From positions 840,001 through 872,000 of the forward strand of contig JALDRA010000001.1 in assembly GCA_031316235.1 (NCBI GenBank): a DNA stretch of 32,000 nt, written 5' to 3'. The notes beneath the pieces were generated by a model. That model saw only the letters and a list, made by a program, of their open reading frames with translations, was not told the DNA's origin and ran no database searches. Made by a program: the position numbers and the translations under genes. This stretch comes from Candidatus Scalindua sp. (GTDB lineage: Bacteria > Planctomycetota > Brocadiia > Brocadiales > Scalinduaceae). Positions 1 to 26,962 of this stretch are shown here, piece after piece. How positions within the stretch are numbered: position 1 is the first letter of the stretch; each line of letters begins with the position of its first letter.

Positions 1-1281
1 AATCATTATAGAAAATGGTTGCAGTACTATCTTGATTTTTGCCAAAAGTATCATTTCCAAAGTATTCAACCTGAAAGCCTCCAGAATTTTTTGAGAAAGT
101 TGGGGAAAAAACGCCAGACACGAGAACAGCAAAAGCAGGCTTCTCATGCAATTTCTCTTTACTACTCTATTGCTCACACCGTAGCGGATCCTGTTGAGAA
201 ATTACGGTCAGGTAGGATTCAGAATGAGCATATTTCTCCAGGGAATAAGGATTTATCTGATGAAGGCATGGAATGGCAAGCCGCGCTTGGTAATCTTTCA
301 TCAGAAATTAAGATACGGCACTATTCACCGAAAACACTAAAGGCGTATACCCTGTGGGTCAGGCAATTTCAGGCCTTTACACGGAAAAAGGAGCCACAGC
401 TATTGTCTTCAGCCGAGGTAAAAGAGTTTTTAACTTTTCTGGCCATAAAGCGAAAGGTCTCTGCCTCAACACAAAACCAGGCTTTTAACGCCCTCCTCTT
501 CTTTTACCGACATGTCATCAAAAAGGATTTTGAAAATTTAAAGGATACTCCCAGGGCCAAGAGGACACGTTATATACCTGTTGTCCTGTCTCGACCAGAA
601 ATAGACGAAATATTTATGCATCTATTATATCCATATGATTTAGTCTCTAAGCTTCTCTATGGGTGCGGACTGAGATTGTTTGAATGCTTGAACCTCCGCG
701 TTCAAAATTTTAATTTTGACACATCTATTCTCACGATTCATGATGGAAAAGGGAAAAAAGATAGGACGGTACCTCTACCGGAGACAATCGTGCCTGATTT
801 AAAGGCACATCTTGAACGGGTAAAGAACCTCCATCAAATAGATCTGGACGCAAATTATTCCGGAGTTTTCCTGTTTGACTTGTTGGATAAGAAATATAGA
901 AATTGTGCAAAGGAGCTGGTCTGGCAGTGGTTTTTCCCCGCAAAAACATTGACTTTAGTTCCGGAAACAGGAGAATTTAGACGGTATCATCTACATGAAT
1001 CGCATGTGCAGAAGGCCATTAAACGGGCGGTTGGAAAGTCAAAGATAGCTAAGCGCGCCTCAGCACATACGTTCCGCCATAGCTTCGCCTCTCATCTGTT
1101 GCAAGCCAATTATGACATACGTACTATTCAGGAACTGCTGGGGCATAGCAATGTCAGGACCACGATGATTTATACCCATACGATAAAGAGGCAGACAGTA
1201 AAAGAGGCAAAGAGTCCTCTCGACTTTTCGCATCTGAAACGACCCACAGAATATAAGCAGAGGGTAACAACATCCCCCTGA
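1..1281 (+). CDS. intI: Integron-type tyrosine recombinase (IntI-like); 5' end probably lies beyond the window edge
   Basis: ORF 19..1281 (TTG) stays open in the same frame back to nt 1 (NHYRKWLQYY...). Catalytic residues are present: R in GLRLFECLNL, HxxR in HTFRHSFASHLL, H and Y in LGHSNVRTTMIYTH. It carries the extra segment that separates IntI from XerC/D: LLDKKYRNCAKELVWQWFFPA...RRYHLHESHVQKAIKRAV, compared from memory with IntI1 [20 protein letters not shown]...RRHHMYDQTFQRAFKRAV. The KSPLD tail is also IntI-like. Confidence 0.85.
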   Translation, partial: NHYRKWLQYYLDFCQKYHFQSIQPESLQNFLRKLGKKRQTREQQKQASHAISLYYSIAHTVADPVEKLRSGRIQNEHISPGNKDLSDEGMEWQAALGNLSSEIKIRHYSPKTLKAYTLWVRQFQAFTRKKEPQLLSSAEVKEFLTFLAIKRKVSASTQNQAFNALLFFYRHVIKKDFENLKDTPRAKRTRYIPVVLSRPEIDEIFMHLLYPYDLVSKLLYGCGLRLFECLNLRVQNFNFDTSILTIHDGKGKKDRTVPLPETIVPDLKAHLERVKNLHQIDLDANYSGVFLFDLLDKKYRNCAKELVWQWFFPAKTLTLVPETGEFRRYHLHESHVQKAIKRAVGKSKIAKRASAHTFRHSFASHLLQANYDIRTIQELLGHSNVRTTMIYTHTIKRQTVKEAKSPLDFSHLKRPTEYKQRVTTSP

Positions 1282-1283
1282 AT

Positions 1284-1310
1284 CCCCCTTCAAAGGGGGA
1301 CTTTGATTTT
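1284..1310 (+). terminator. Possible intrinsic terminator after intI
   Basis: CCCCC(TTCAAA)GGGGG hairpin starts 3 nt after the TGA stop and is followed by ACTTTGATTTT. The stem is short and the T-tract imperfect. Confidence 0.35.
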
Positions 1311-1328
1311 AGTGGGGTTAAGATTACT

Positions 1329-1450
1329 TAGTGGTTGAACGAGAACTGCCCAGATATACCCATTACAAAATGATTTTTGGAATTTCAGGGCCGGAGTTTA
1401 CTTGAAATTTTGATTTTTCGATTGAACAAAACCGGAGGCTTAGTAATACT
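1329..1450 (+). repeat. 122-bp direct repeat, copy A (equals the left arm of the 2423..2734 palindrome); starts TAGTG-GTTGAAC
   Basis: Hand alignment with 2423..2544 gives 115/122 identical with no gaps. Preceded by a second TTAGTGG at 1309..1315. Confidence 0.9.
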
Positions 1451-1507
1451 TAGAACCCAGGAAAAAATAATTTATCATTCCCGCATCTCATTCCTCTTGC
1501 TAAATTT

Positions 1508-1735
1508 TTACACCAATTCAAGAAACCTATCGACTGAAAGCCGAGCCTGTTTCAATATATGCGACAAGGTGGATCTTTTGATGGGACTGTGGGCAGGAAT
1601 TGTCAGTTTAAGAACTTCGTCTTGTAAATGCTTCTGAAGTCTAATATGGCTTCCCTTCTGACGGACAACTACCCATCCATCCCGTTGCAAAGCCTTTCTT
1701 ACCCTTTCGTATCCTAAACTCGGCACCTTTGTCAT
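1508..1735 (-). CDS. hicA: HicA-family mRNA interferase toxin
   Basis: 75 aa. DGWVVVRQKGSHIRLQK motif with the conserved GSH histidine, then ...IKRSTLSHILKQARLS, typical of HicA/YcfA. Overlaps hicB by 4 nt (ATGA). Confidence 0.85.
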   Translation of the reverse strand: MTKVPSLGYERVRKALQRDGWVVVRQKGSHIRLQKHLQDEVLKLTIPAHSPIKRSTLSHILKQARLSVDRFLELV

Positions 1736-1935
1736 ACGGCGATTTCCACAATTTCATGGTCCGGGGATAAGGTAAGATCGTCTTCTACCGGGTCTAAATA
1801 CAGTTCAATGGCTTCTTTGATATTGGCCATGACCTCTTCTTTGGTGTCTCCCTCACTGATACAACCAGGGAGGCTTGGCACATAAACTGTATACCCCCCC
1901 TCATCACTGGGTTCGATAACAATTTTTAATTTCAT
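1732..1935 (-). CDS. hicB: HicB-like antitoxin (UPF0150 fold only, 67 aa)
   Basis: MKLKIVIEPSDEGGYTVYVPSLPGCISEGDTKEEVMANIKEAIELYL matches the HicB N-terminal domain pattern. I prefer the ATG at 1935 (GGAGGG 7 nt upstream) to the TTG at 1950 used in the ORF track. Confidence 0.8.
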   Translation of the reverse strand: MKLKIVIEPSDEGGYTVYVPSLPGCISEGDTKEEVMANIKEAIELYLDPVEDDLTLSPDHEIVEIAV

Positions 1936-1983
1936 AGCTTTTCCCTCCAAATTGAAGAAATATAACGTTAAATGAACTGCGAC

Positions 1984-2001
1984 TATAATATCACAATTAT
2001 A
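1984..2001 (-). promoter_or_regulatory. Possible hicBA promoter/operator palindrome
   Basis: TATAAT-atcaca-ATTATA inverted repeat about 50 nt upstream of the hicB ATG. It reads TATAAT on both strands. No convincing -35. Confidence 0.25.
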
Positions 2002-2188
2002 CAGACGCAGCCTATCGTAAATACCATAGCCATGTTTATATTACTTTAAAGCACTTTTCAAGTGAAATTTCTCATAAATTTGCGAAAACGCTTGTTTTTA
2101 CCTATCATTAAAAATAGCTCTTTATAATTTTAAGTGGGTAAGTAGTGTATAATCCTAGAAAACATACATATTTTAGGAGGAAGTAGAT

Positions 2189-2242
2189 ATGATGAGTTTT
2201 GTGAACGAGTTAGTGCTTCGACAAAATTATTGTACTTTATAA
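2189..2242 (+). CDS. 17-codon micro-ORF (MMSFVNELVLRQNYCTL), speculative
   Basis: Perfect AGGAGG at 2175..2180, 8 nt before the ATG at 2189. TATAAT at 2148..2153. GCTGTTT-GGG-AAACAGC hairpin downstream at 2341..2357. No homology evidence is possible. Confidence 0.2.
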   Translation: MMSFVNELVLRQNYCTL

Positions 2243-2422
2243 TGTGTGATAAATACATAATGCAGAGAACTGATACAATCCTATCAATGCTCGTTTTTCC
2301 CCAAACGAACACACTGATATTCATATCAGGCATAATAAAGGCTGTTTGGGAAACAGCCCCTACATTTTATGATCAAGAATCGCTTAATTTGGGTTAAATT
2401 AAATAGGCCTTGATTGGAAACA

Positions 2423-2734
2423 TAGTGGCTGAACGAGAACTGTCCAGATATACCCATTACAAAATGATTTTTGGAATTTCTGGGCCGGAGTTTGATTGAA
2501 ATTTAGATTTTTCGATTGAACAAAACCAGAGGCTTAGTAATACTAAGTCGAGGATTTTGTGATTGAGAAAAATGTAAAGTTCGGGTGAAATCGGGCTCAG
2601 AAAACCAAAAATCAATTTGTGATGGGTATTTAAGGCGCGTAATCGTTTCGGAACCGGAGCGTACTGAAGTACGTGAGGATTACGGAATTATTGCAGCAAC
2701 GCAGTAGGTGGGTAGTTATCGTTCAACCACACTA
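2423..2734. repeat. 312-bp imperfect palindrome (long hairpin); left arm equals direct repeat copy B (2423..2544)
   Basis: Outer arms TAGTGGCTGAACGAGAACTG / TAGTTATCGTTCAACCACACTA. Inner arms 2451..2539 and 2541..2628 are centred on CTTAGTA-A-TACTAAG. The right arm carries an 84-nt insertion (2629..2712) with its own stems. The last 3 nt are the fabI stop codon. Confidence 0.9.
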
Positions 2735-3499
2735 GATGCCAACAATATGGTACCCCGAATCAACATGAACAATTTCCCCTGTTACATTTTTTGCCCAATC
2801 ACTACAGAGGTAAACAGCGGTATTTCCGACATCGGTCGGATCTATATTACGCCGTAAAGGAGCCATCTCCTTAGTAAGTTCATACATAACCATAAAGTCT
2901 TTCAAGCCTCGTGCTGCGAGAGTCCTCATGGGGCCTGCCGAAATAGCGTTCACACGGATACTCTTTGGTCCTAAATCTGCCGCCAGATATCGAACGCTTG
3001 ATTCAAGTGCCGCTTTTGCAACTCCCATTACATTATAATTTTTGACAGCCCTTTCCCCTCCAATATAGGTTAGAGCCGTTACCGCCCCGCCATTCACCTC
3101 CAGGAGAGGAAGCGCCTCTCTGCATAAGGCAATCAAGGAGTAGCAGCTTATGTCCAACGCGAGTTTGAACCCCTCCCGTGAAGTATTAACAAAATTACCG
3201 GTAAGGTCTTCCTGTCTGGCAAAGGCGGGTGTATGGATAAGCCCGTCAAGGGCATCAACTTTATTGCCCAGCCGATCAAAAAGTTTTTTTATGTCGTCAT
3301 CTGATGTAACATCGCACTCCCCAAGGTCTATTGAATCCAGGGAGTTAAATAAACTTTTCACTTCATTACCAAATCGTTCGTTCTGATACGTATACGCTAT
3401 TCTTGCACCCTGTTTCGATAGAGACTGCGCTATCCCCCAACCGGTACTGCGTTTACCTGAGATATTAGCAATGAGAACAGTTTTACCTTGAAGAATCAT
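2732..3499 (-). CDS. fabI: Enoyl-[acyl-carrier-protein] reductase (NADH), FabI
   Basis: 255 aa SDR. The N-terminal GKTVLIANISGKRSTGWGIAQSL...AYTYQ and SAGPMRTLAA motifs are typical of FabI. Confidence 0.9.
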   Translation of the reverse strand: MILQGKTVLIANISGKRSTGWGIAQSLSKQGARIAYTYQNERFGNEVKSLFNSLDSIDLGECDVTSDDDIKKLFDRLGNKVDALDGLIHTPAFARQEDLTGNFVNTSREGFKLALDISCYSLIALCREALPLLEVNGGAVTALTYIGGERAVKNYNVMGVAKAALESSVRYLAADLGPKSIRVNAISAGPMRTLAARGLKDFMVMYELTKEMAPLRRNIDPTDVGNTAVYLCSDWAKNVTGEIVHVDSGYHIVGI

Positions 3500-3551: not shown

Positions 3552-3663
3552 TATACTCATCTCATAATAGTTTTCGGATAAAATCCGAGATAAAATTGAG
3601 CGAGTAAACCTTCACCAAGATTTAGTTTCCGGTAAAACCGAAAACCAAATCGGTTTTAGTATA
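3552..3663 (+). repeat. MITE-like two-hairpin intergenic element, full copy 1 (112 bp)
   Basis: TA-TACTCATCTCA...TTGAGCGAGTA (module 1, apex TCGGAT-AAA-ATCCGA) followed by GATTTAGTTT...AAACCAAATC...TTTTAGTA-TA (module 2). About 92% identical to the reverse complement of 26851..26962. Confidence 0.85.
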
Positions 3664-3779: not shown

Positions 3780-4763
3780 TTACCCCACGACAGGCAGCAA
3801 CTCATTTGACAGTTCAATCAGTTTCTCAACATCCAACTCTTCACCCCTCCTGCCCGGATCTATACCAACTCTCTCTAAAACACCAATTACCCTATCCCGA
3901 GCATCCTCGTGCAGTTTCCTCTTAGAAGCCGGATCTGTTTCTCCTGAAAGTTTTGTATCATCAGCCCTCTGGTATAAGGACAAAAGGCTGTTCAATATTG
4001 TCTTACGCCTTGAAACATAGATGGCATTCACAACCTCATTAAACCTGCGGGGGTCCTCAATAGCAGCAGAGAATCTGTCTGTCGTAACCTCCATCTTGAC
4101 AATCGCAGAATCAATGCGTGGTGCAGGCCAGAACACATCAGGTGGTAATTTCTTTAAAACCCTGACATTTGCATATAATTGGGTAATGAGAGATAACCGG
4201 CCAAAATCTTTTGTAGCAGGCCTGGCAACCAGCCTGTTGGTTATATCTTTCTGGAGTGTCAGAATCATTGAATTGATAGGTAATTCACCCTGCAAGAGAT
4301 CAATAATTACCGGCGTGCTGATATAATAAGGCAGATTAGATACCACCTTAATACCCTCTCCAGCCAAATTACTACCATGTAATTGTATATAGCTACGGAT
4401 TTTTTCAACTACTTCCGGATGAATATGGTGCTTTGATTTCAAGATATCGCTGTTGATCAGTGTCACATTCGTAACCTCCTGTAAGGTTTCAGACAAGATC
4501 TCAAAGACCTTACGATCTATCTCAACAGCAAATACCTGCTGCACCTTCTCAGCAAGCATCCTTGTCAAGGAACCGGTACCGGCCCCTATCTCAAGCACAA
4601 TGTCATCACTACGTAATTCTGAAGACTTGACAATAAACTGTAATATATTCTGGTCTATTAAAAAATTCTGCCCCCATCGTCTCTTGAGACGAATGCCTCG
4701 TTCGCTAAAAATGATCTTTAGCATGGATTTTGTATGTGGCACATTGAGGGGAAACATAGACAC
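3780..4763 (-). CDS. rsmA: 16S rRNA (adenine1518/1519-N6)-dimethyltransferase RsmA/KsgA; start uncertain, long C-terminal tail
   Basis: GQNFLIDQNI, SAM-binding VLEIGAGTGSLT and SNLPYYISTP motifs. Confidence 0.9.
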   Translation of the reverse strand: MSMFPLNVPHTKSMLKIIFSERGIRLKRRWGQNFLIDQNILQFIVKSSELRSDDIVLEIGAGTGSLTRMLAEKVQQVFAVEIDRKVFEILSETLQEVTNVTLINSDILKSKHHIHPEVVEKIRSYIQLHGSNLAGEGIKVVSNLPYYISTPVIIDLLQGELPINSMILTLQKDITNRLVARPATKDFGRLSLITQLYANVRVLKKLPPDVFWPAPRIDSAIVKMEVTTDRFSAAIEDPRRFNEVVNAIYVSRRKTILNSLLSLYQRADDTKLSGETDPASKRKLHEDARDRVIGVLERVGIDPGRRGEELDVEKLIELSNELLPVVG

Positions 4764-19949: not shown

Positions 19950-19985
19950 AATTCCTTCAAATAATTTTTATCTTCTATTCTAAAT

Positions 19986-20042
19986 TATACTCATCTCATA
20001 ATGGTTTTCGGATAAAATCAGAGAAAAAATTGAGCGAGTATA
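19986..20042 (+). repeat. MITE-like element, module-1-only copy 2 (57 bp)
   Basis: TATACTCATCTCATAATGGTTTTCGGATAAAATCAGAGAAAAAATTGAGCGAGTATA, lying 37 nt upstream of the kinase start codon. Confidence 0.85.
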
Positions 20043-21004: not shown

Positions 21005-21143
21005 TATACTCATCTCATACTGGATTTCGGATAAAATCCGAGAAAAAATTGAGCGAGTAAAGCCCTCGCGTTTTTTGTCCGGGGATACCATTAACCAGAC
21101 TTTGGTTTTTGGATAAAGACAAAACCAAATCGGTTTTAGTACA
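21005..21143 (+). repeat. MITE-like element, variant copy 3 (139 bp, divergent module 2)
   Basis: Module 1 is identical to that of copy 4. Module 2 is replaced or expanded but keeps the stem GACTTTGGTTTT/AAAACCAAATC and the terminal CGGTTTTAGTA. Confidence 0.8.
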
Positions 21144-21380
21144 TTGATTTTCATACATTGTTTTGGTAATTTGAGATTGTGAAATAATGAATGAAACCCA
21201 TTGTGTGAAGATGTTTCAGATTACCCGTAAAGAAGAACCGGCTAAGCCTGATAAATCCGGTAACTCCTGCTGACTGTCAATATAAGTGCCCGATCTATCA
21301 GGCTTTTCAAGTTTATTGAAAGCTATAGGAAAAAACAGAGATACTTTATTTGAATCAACAAGTTAAGATACCAGGTGCAG

Positions 21381-26850: not shown

Positions 26851-26962
26851 TATACTAAAACCGATCTGGTTTTCGGTTTTACCGGAAACCAGATCCTGGT
26901 GAAGGTATACTCGCTCAATTTTTTCTCGGATTTTATCCGAAATCCAGTATGAGATGAGTATA
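26851..26962 (-). repeat. MITE-like two-hairpin element, full copy 4 (112 bp, inverted orientation)
   Basis: The reverse complement aligns end to end with copy 1 (about 103/112). Flanked by TA on both sides. Lies between kdsB and pyrG. Confidence 0.85.

Follow-up and report, generated by a model that had tools for sequence, protein, structure and literature searches.

A 312-bp palindrome abutting fabI in Candidatus Scalindua, probably two nested ERIC-like intergenic repeats

What kind of element is a palindrome of 312 bp that lies between an integron integrase gene and fabI in an anammox planctomycete? The stretch of DNA analysed here (the window) comprises 32,000 nucleotides of Candidatus Scalindua sp. 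(GenBank assembly GCA_031316235.1, contig JALDRA010000001.1, positions 840,001 to 872,000 of the forward strand), and the palindrome occupies its positions 2423-2734, ending on the fabI stop codon. The present data make it likely that the palindrome consists of two non-autonomous, hairpin-forming intergenic repeats, one nested in the other, that resemble the repeats known as ERIC (enterobacterial repetitive intergenic consensus), and nested, mobile repeats of this kind probably act as transcribed hairpins. According to this model, an outer unit of ~128 bp, in which terminal inverted repeats of 20-22 bp would surround an apical core, belongs to a large superfamily, and an inner unit, a palindrome of 184 bp that is specific to Scalindua and similar in its apex, would sit in the 5' arm of the outer one.

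Fold and anatomy of the palindrome

The element has the following parts, R1 being the covariance model built for the family of the apical core.

2423-2734, plus strand: composite palindromic element (outer repeat with the inner one nested in it); it folds, and plus denotes the strand with the G.U-closed apex and the better fold
2423-2449, plus strand: left terminal inverted repeat of the outer module, TA-GTGGCTGAACGAGAACTGTCCA-GAT, from the inverted repeat 2425-2446 / 2709-2730
2450-2633, plus strand: inner module, the 184-bp palindrome ATACCCAT...ATGGGTAT, which occurs alone elsewhere
2533-2547, plus strand: apex of the inner module, CTTAGTA-A-TACTAAG, in the ERIC-like context AAAACC-AGAG-GCTTAG-TAATA-CTAAGT-CGA-GGATTTT
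2634-2734, plus strand: right part of the outer module, with the conserved core and the right terminal inverted repeat (R1 match 2627-2713; right arm 2709-2730)
2652-2681, plus strand: conserved apical core AACC-GGA-GCGTAC-TGAA-GTACGT-GA-GGATT, with an invariant closing G.U pair and GGA/GA purine loops
2732-2734, minus strand: fabI stop codon TAG (CTA on the plus strand), overlapping the last base of the right repeat and the flanking TA

The palindrome is real and lies well beyond chance expectation. As RNA, the plus strand of 2423-2734 folds with a minimum free energy (MFE) of -125.8 kcal/mol, against -70.2 +/- 4.7 for shuffled sequences (z -11.9), and the minus strand reaches -97.4 kcal/mol (z -10.5). 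The two strands, which a preliminary description of this locus had proposed to fold side by side, are therefore unequal in energy, the plus strand being clearly lower, and DNA parameters give the same order (-67.6 for plus versus -53.4 for minus). The same description had called the element a long imperfect palindrome with strand-biased G:U pairs; the first statement was borne out by the folding energies, and the second holds as claimed or more strongly, with 14 G:U pairs in the plus fold and 2 in the minus fold of the entire element, and 7 and 1, respectively, in the inner hairpin alone. This bias is seen again in other copies (plus versus minus, 14/4 in locus L003, 11/5 in L004 and 8/2 in L006), and the plus strand is the better folder in nearly all copies of the Scalindua element. 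The arms and stems that had been outlined by hand were recovered as well: an inverted-repeat search returned the outer arms (2425-2446 / 2709-2730, 22 nt, 82% complementary) together with the inner arms, the MFE fold contains both nested stems of an 84-nt branch in the right arm, CGTAATC...GATTACG and CGTAC-TGAA-GTACG, and the inner apex stands where it had been placed. Taken alone, the outer module (2423-2449 joined to 2634-2734, 128 nt) folds at -47.8 kcal/mol. The element is small and non-coding, with terminal inverted repeats and no open reading frame (ORF) with a family match inside 2423-2734. The copy in the window has TA on both sides (2423-2424 and 2733-2734) and, as first noted, ends on the fabI stop, the CTA at 2732-2734 being the TAG of the minus-strand fabI (2732-3499). 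This stop is the native one, since the FabI orthologues are all of 255 residues. A TA target duplication at the fabI stop was considered and rejected, as removal of the element together with one TA leaves no stop for ~33 codons.

Two units that also exist independently, and their mobility

A genome scan with a 25-nt pattern from the inner arm returned four loci, all in Scalinduaceae, and the inner module was found in Scalindua loci only. Full-length copies of the composite are present in L003 and, with unrelated flanks, in L004 (5120-5420); the neighbours of the composite copies differ, being fabI in one case, a umuC-like gene in another and radical-SAM/intI in a third. In L006 the composite adjoins a second intI and has lost query positions 81-155 by a deletion symmetric about the apex at 118, and its outer stem is a perfect 20/20 duplex. 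The inner hairpin occurs alone as a 184-bp copy in L005 (5174-5356), and a second inner hairpin in that locus is split by a group II intron (2506..2399 and 502..427). Outer-only copies of ~125 nt lie in L005 (4436-4560), L017, L028, L048, L051 and L086, and the outer terminus of the type seen in the window is found in the outer-only copies of L005, L017, L028, L048 and L132. In L132, where FabI is 89% identical and the gene order is the same, the fabI stop is followed by the outer module only; the junction reads ...GCGCCTTGT|ATCTGG..., and at this same junction the window has the 184-bp palindrome. Because the fabI site of L132 holds the outer module alone, 2450-2633 is the inserted unit and 2423-2449 plus 2634-2734 form the outer repeat. 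The element is composite, both of its units existing independently, and the 84-nt branch, which the preliminary description had taken for an insertion, is instead the conserved core of the outer module.

Copies of the element have been gained or lost between close relatives, with target duplication. On contig SHMT01000010.1 (L003/L130), where L003 4911-8000 corresponds to window 1-3069 at 95% identity, extra outer copies lie 3 nt past the ribE stop and 66 nt past the rsmA stop, and neither is present in the window. The ribE-pdxA spacer is empty in the window (10 nt) and in L132, reading ...GGGTTTTTGTAGATAAAGTTAAATG, and filled in L130, where the site reads GGGGTTTTTGTAGAT-[element]-GGGGTTTTTTAGAT... 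with a target duplication of ~14 nt. The rsmA copy is bounded by a duplication of ~8 nt (CTCTAGTT / CACTAGTT) and carries a 16-nt extension, AGGGTTTCCGATCAAG, that is also seen after the fabI copies. Multiple copies at unrelated loci, with insertion polymorphism between related genomes, mark a MITE (miniature inverted-repeat transposable element), and because the copies are several and their flanks unrelated, the element is better described as MITE-like than as an attC-like site that occurs once or an RNA gene in single copy. The preliminary description had named copies with unrelated flanks as the finding that would speak against its own view, and it is this finding that was made. As to placement, the right repeat ends no more than ~10 nt from the stop of a convergent ORF (of at least 100 residues) in nine of 12 Scalindua-type copies, corresponding to seven of ten independent loci, and all of these stop-adjacent copies are antisense to the abutting gene.

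The Scalindua element is small and non-coding, with terminal inverted repeats and copies at multiple unrelated loci, like the Correia/NEMIS, RUP and Nezha MITEs, and it resembles these also in showing insertion polymorphism. Such MITEs are polymorphic in their insertions, co-transcribed and able to form RNA hairpins (PMC2229807, PMC3184786). However, no insertion sequence or transposase matching the Scalindua element is known, and its nested, self-similar insertion also sets it apart from known MITEs.

Some further observations concern the nesting of repeats in these genomes. The intron in L005 (503-2398; Rfam RF00029 and RF01999, with a reverse transcriptase/maturase ORF at 580-1827) sits 16 nt 3' of the apex hairpin of the inner copy, in the sense of the element's plus strand, which is how introns that target hairpins (class C-like) would be expected to lie. 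Another family of palindromic repeats (TATACTCATCTCATAATRGTTTTCGGATAAAATCCGAGAWAAAATTGAGCGAGTA...) is represented in the window by four or more copies (3552-3663, 19985-20040, 21005-21145 and, in reverse complement, 26851-26962), occurs in L005 (384-425 and 2507-2606), where it hosts a copy of the inner palindrome, and in L133 (~1560-1590) interrupts the outer element after fabI. In these genomes, then, repeats nest repeatedly. After fabI of Ca. Scalindua japonica (L134, 5769-5850) there is a remnant of ~75 nt, GTTGAA...GCGCCTT...ATCTGGAACAA, from which the core is missing and which resembles an outer element that has undergone a palindrome-centred deletion.

The apical core and its relatives

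The 84-nt branch is the conserved core of a widespread repeat. A core pattern, AGCGTACTNNAGTACNTGAGNATT, taken from four Scalindua variants and expected to give about three chance matches, matched at least 120 metagenome contigs among the matches listed; these fall into 66 clusters at 80% identity and span GC contents of 0.28-0.64. Hosts are confirmed for Ca. Scalindua and E. coli only. All cluster representatives fold as long hairpins, the stems being lineage-specific and the apex common, where members derived from the pattern share the pattern by construction. With 35 representatives aligned, 83% of cells are paired in the named structure versus 70.5% in shuffles, and the covariation score is 0.295 versus 0.094, with none of 500 shuffles reaching it and slid registers giving at most 0.095. 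Columns 27:51 flip between G-C (18 sequences) and C-G (13), column 27 lying outside the search pattern and column 51 being N in it. R1 scores 62.7 bits on the window at 2627-2713 (+) and also finds the apex of the inner module at 2500-2586 (+), with 16.5 bits (E 5e-5 in a 201-nt search). Run against 560 kb of fetched loci, it returned further copies without the exact pattern, and in these the apical helices are compensated (GCGTAT/ATACGT, GTTTAC/GTAAAT, GTGTAC/GTACAT, GTTGGC/GCCAAT) and neither the G.U pair that closes them nor the 5'-GGA / 3'-GA loops vary. Compensatory changes in homologues, which the preliminary description had wished to see looked for, are present in the apical helix of this wider family.

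Its interpretation stands in part. The invariant G.U pair, the asymmetric GGA/GA loop, the covarying helix and the better folding of the plus strand agree with its proposal of selection on a single-stranded plus-sense fold. Superfamily-wide, the plus strand is the better folder in 45 of 66 cases, and the numbers of G:U pairs, 5.2 versus 4.7, do not differ significantly. Because this wider asymmetry is modest, the strong G:U bias belongs mainly to the Scalindua elements and to the apex.

The superfamily is large and previously uncatalogued, its apical module being absent from Rfam and from the literature searched. Rfam gave no match at gathering score in the window or in ten loci, and nothing relevant at E<=5 in two loci, which is in keeping with the initial remark that the element resembles no nameable RNA class. 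A full-text literature search with the core as a sequence string found only unrelated primers, and a plasmid collection searched with a high-GC family member gave no match. Two known motifs were tried on the apex and rejected: a sarcin-ricin-loop reading of AGUAC-GUGA-GGA, as AGUAC pairs with GUACU in the covarying hairpin of all members, and a kink-turn reading, as the 5' strand has just a 1-nt bulge before GA. Tandem half-size units with a period of ~98 nt, each with the conserved core, were seen in L007 (3653-3930) and L025 (57-178).

One member is an unannotated palindromic repeat of ~170 bp in E. coli, located between the pheM attenuator and pheS. Of 5426 complete E. coli genomes, 5095 match the core pattern and 4807 have the copy between pheM and pheS; the repeat occurs at one to four places per genome.

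NC_000913.3 1799013-1799096 (L128 2014-2097): copy in E. coli K-12, R1 49.4 bits, E 2.6e-13; also L127 2501-2674

This repeat has a core pattern identical to that of the window element and belongs to the superfamily by R1, but its outer stems are of the CCAGCGC...GCACTGCC type and, unlike the window element, it lies sense in a 5' leader and abuts no stop codon.

ERIC is related to the superfamily by architecture and is not a demonstrated member of it. The query used, the ERIC1R and ERIC2 primer sequences joined (GTGAATCCCCAGGAGCTTACATAAGTAAGTGACTGGGGTGAGCG), is found at 100% identity in E. coli and matches 5424 of 5426 genomes. ERIC is an imperfect intergenic palindrome of ~127 bp and the outer module, at 128 bp, is likewise a long hairpin; in both, the most conserved part is the centre, with the order stem, (G)GA, G.U-closed 5-bp helix, 4-nt loop, GA and stem, and in both it is flanked by the motifs AAGGCG ... 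AACGC(A)GC. The ERIC copy in L129 has the apex CCCCAG-GA-GCTTAC-ATAA-GTAAGT-GA-CTGGGG with the shoulders AAGGCG ... AACGCAAACGCAGC. Its folding is asymmetric like that of the Scalindua element (-56.8 vs -40.0 kcal/mol), and in the single copy examined the right end of the hairpin overlaps the stop of the antisense gene ybhI, as at fabI. However, the termini of ERIC are unrelated to those of the outer module and the sequence similarity is marginal: the ERIC core, GGAGCTTACATAAGTAAGTGAC, has the architecture of the outer core with a compensated helix, and R1 locates the copy with the correct position and strand but a weak score of just 15.4 bits (E 5e-4 in an 844-nt search). ERIC is reported from Enterobacteriaceae and Vibrionaceae only (PMC10969869), whereas the present element resides in a planctomycete. 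ERIC is described as a MITE with terminal repeats and duplicates TA on insertion (PMC2229807), where the Scalindua element duplicates ~14 and ~8 nt; it is co-transcribed and forms an RNA hairpin, with an orientation-dependent effect on mRNA stability via an RNase E site (PMC2229807; PMC10969869). Because R1 finds the inner apex and ERIC shares the layout, the 312-bp element may be described as one ERIC-like repeat nested in another. Size variants of ERIC reportedly arise by internal insertion and palindrome-centred deletion (Sharp and Leach 1996; Sharp 1997), and both processes are seen in the Scalindua element. The orientation of ERIC near stop codons was reportedly treated by De Gregorio in 2005, and for ERICs in such positions it has been proposed that terminating ribosomes open the stem. 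To our knowledge, the origin, mobility and central conservation of ERIC have gone unexplained since 1990-91, and typing by ERIC-PCR (polymerase chain reaction) takes ERIC as an enterobacterial element.

We advance only tentatively, and as a possibility more doubtful than the nesting itself, that ERIC might represent the enterobacterial branch within a far larger superfamily of palindromic repeats that extends across phyla. The strand-specific apical module of this superfamily, comprising a tandem GGA/GA purine loop and a covarying 5-bp helix that an invariant G.U pair closes, often with AAGGCG...AACGC shoulders, would then be recognised by a widely conserved factor, host or mobilising, that acts on plus-sense nucleic acid in single-stranded form. 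If true, this would explain why the tip is conserved and not the ends, why the repeats nest in one another and why they land in one orientation beside stop codons. An apex conserved across phyla is the unexpected part of these results. The ERIC-type apical architecture, shared by an anammox planctomycete, an unannotated E. coli repeat and at least 100 metagenome contigs, is a concrete and testable motif, and it suggests that many 'species-specific' palindromic repeats are related.

Mechanism, rival explanations and surroundings

The neighbours of the element that bear on its possible role are these.

19-1281, plus strand: integron integrase gene intI (TIGR02249, 381.6 bits against a cutoff of 265), a neighbour and not a partner of the element
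1283-1300, plus strand: canonical terminator-like hairpin and T-tract, directly after intI and apart from the palindrome
1329-1453, plus strand: copy A, one half of a composite element (the left arms of both modules, with the apex), cut off exactly after the apex
1322-2397, unstranded: segment of ~1.07 kb with copy A and hicA/hicB, an insertion relative to L132, with direct GGGTTAA repeats at 1315-1321 and 2391-2397
2340-2358, unstranded: GC-rich hairpin GGCTGTTTGGGAAACAGCC, flanked on either side by T/A tracts, with the minus-strand tail TTTATTAT

Under the reading as nested ERIC-like repeats, the element would have spread as a MITE-like mobile sequence and have landed, or been retained, just 3' of stop codons and antisense to the gene. 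It would be co-transcribed into the 3' untranslated region (UTR) of fabI, where it would form a long hairpin with the stop codon in its base; such co-transcription is suggested by the position of the next terminator-like hairpin on that strand, 2340-2358, which is likely, judging by its sequence, to terminate the fabI transcript beyond the element. By analogy with ERIC and Correia, the hairpin may modulate the stability or processing of the mRNA 3' end. A terminating ribosome that melts the base of the stem could expose RNase sites and so affect decay or processing at that end, and the hairpin may further insulate convergent transcription. The G:U bias of the plus strand would be inherited from a master sequence of the family and constrained as single-stranded plus-sense RNA or as a mobility intermediate.

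Several observations weigh against this reading. The apex is conserved and not the termini, the opposite of what a classical MITE bound by a transposase shows, and the duplications of ~14 and ~8 nt at the two recent insertions are not the TA of ERIC. No autonomous element or mobilising enzyme was identified among the neighbours of the 66 family clusters, which are housekeeping genes with no enrichment of transposases, integrases or reverse transcriptases; a candidate autonomous partner would be expected to have ends like the outer-module-type termini, GTGTTTGAACGAAAACT. Covariation in the inner module is weak (5 of 71 pairs doubly changed, covariation term +1.12), in a set of five closely similar sequences. 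The Scalindua mRNA of the abutting gene is the weaker-folding minus strand, the G.U-rich plus strand being the template. Because the mRNA carries the minus strand, a simple role as a 3'-UTR hairpin does not account for the plus-strand bias, which would point instead to a plus-sense single-stranded stage, in mobility or as an antisense RNA. Finally, some superfamily members from several diverged lineages share both their intercistronic site and their orientation, the clusters concerned being less than 80% identical to one another.

L013, L014, L097, L103: between Proton_antipo_M-family genes, ~4 clusters
L020, L043, L059, L112: beside dnaN/recF-type genes, ~3 clusters

These recurrent sites suggest long vertical retention in housekeeping operons and possibly function rather than pure selfish spread. 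They lead to the rival explanation that survives best, namely that the apex marks a structured RNA with a function, or an mRNA element that regulates in cis, to which a conserved host factor binds, and that the repeats are kept for that function and are not selfish mobile DNA. Lineages of such different GC content (0.28-0.64) maintain the covarying helices together with the GGA/GA loops and the invariant G.U pair, which fits this explanation, and so does the fact that 4807 of 5426 E. coli genomes have kept the pheM-pheS copy. We nevertheless consider it improbable: both orientations are common family-wide (22 sense versus 27 antisense between co-directional genes), copies are gained and lost between near-identical genomes, and they tolerate the 184-bp insertion, the insertion of another repeat (L133) and internal deletions; the Scalindua mRNA strand, moreover, is the one without the G.U pairs, and Rfam holds no family for the element.

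A plain bidirectional terminator or insulator without family identity would suit a hairpin that is very stable on both strands and lies between convergent units, the intI/hicBA side and fabI. However, the stem is followed by no T/U tract and a terminator scan finds nothing at the ends of the palindrome, canonical terminator-like hairpins being located elsewhere (1283-1300 and 2340-2358), and copies of the family stand inside operons, between ribE and pdxA and between rsmA and fabI in L130. This explanation is very unlikely.

The weakest rival is that of a giant attC- or attI-like site recombined as a folded single strand by the adjacent integrase. An attC site has the boxes R''/R' RYYYAAC ... 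GTTRRRY, measures ~55-150 nt and folds with extrahelical bases and an unpaired central spacer. The attC sites, including large, conserved chromosomal ones such as the VCRs of Vibrio, share with the element an imperfect palindrome, inverted AAC/GTT termini, strand-biased folding and an integrase nearby, and the outer module alone (128 bp) falls within their size range. At this locus, a genuine integron integrase (TIGR02249) is encoded 1.1 kb from a palindrome whose strands fold unequally and whose ends hold AAC...GTT within GCTGAAC / GTTCAAC; in L006 the element begins 5 nt past the intI stop, and in the window a half copy and a full copy flank hicBA as attCs flank cassettes. The integron, however, has its own sites. 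Upstream of intI in L003, small minus-strand ORFs are separated by canonical attC sites, in an array divergent from intI; the attC sites of L003 and L006 were identified by eye and motif.

L003 680-750: attC GCCTAAC...GTTCTAC
L003 1392-1470: attC GTAGAAC...GTTATGT
L003 2319-2446: attC ACATAAC...GTTAGAT
L003 3033-3159: attC ATCTAAC...GTTAGGC
L003 ~3985-4040: attC ...GTTATGC

These canonical sites measure ~70-125 nt, and an attI-like sequence, AACAAGTTATTCTA, is conserved and common to L003 and L006. The whole forms a classical chromosomal integron left of the window, with intI, the attI-like site and at least five cassettes (L003 680-4830; L006 2212-2950, the array with attI and attCs lying at 2212-2850). 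The palindrome lies on the other, 3' side of intI, past the integrase gene's own terminator (1283-1300), and it is, as the preliminary description had itself remarked, far larger than attC sites (312 nt against ~55-150). Its outer stem is continuous, without extrahelical bases or an unpaired spacer (perfect over 20/20 in L006), and it is the apex that is conserved and not the R/L boxes. The termini that had been thought core-site-like do not appear to be integron core sites: GCTGAAC ... GTTCAAC keep AAC/GTT, each being one position off the attC consensus, and form part of the 20-22-bp terminal repeats. The same element follows ribE, rsmA and umuC and occurs in E. coli with no integrase nearby, as in other integrase-free genomes and loci; among ~125 loci, intI stands beside the core in the two Scalindua intI loci only. 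The hicBA segment, for its part, is bounded by GGGTTAA repeats and not by core sites. The element is unrelated to the attC sites of this integron, and the attC-like reading, to which we attach next to no probability, is rejected in favour of a palindromic MITE-like repeat of ERIC-type architecture. The tempting view of the locus as a giant attC or a new recombination substrate is thereby removed, and nesting explains its odd anatomy.

The remaining features concern the immediate surroundings. Past the palindrome come the minus-strand genes fabI, rsmA, a flavodoxin gene, pdxA, ribE, psd and eno, in that order. The intI ORF is open at the window edge; its TIGR02249 match starts from residue 90, and with the ATG at 268 as start codon the protein would have 337 residues. 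The genes hicA and hicB lie on the minus strand between the half copy and the full palindrome. In L132, the outer element, a spacer of ~45 nt, the intI terminator and intI are contiguous and hicBA is missing, and because of this contiguity the stretch of the window at ~1322-2397, with half copy and hicBA, is a later insertion. The intI orthologue of L132 is present as two ORFs, followed by transposase genes of the IS110 and IS1595 families. Copy A (1329-1453) is 93.6% identical to 2423-2547 over 125 nt, and its breaking off exactly past the hairpin apex suggests that a break or a switch of template occurred at the tip.

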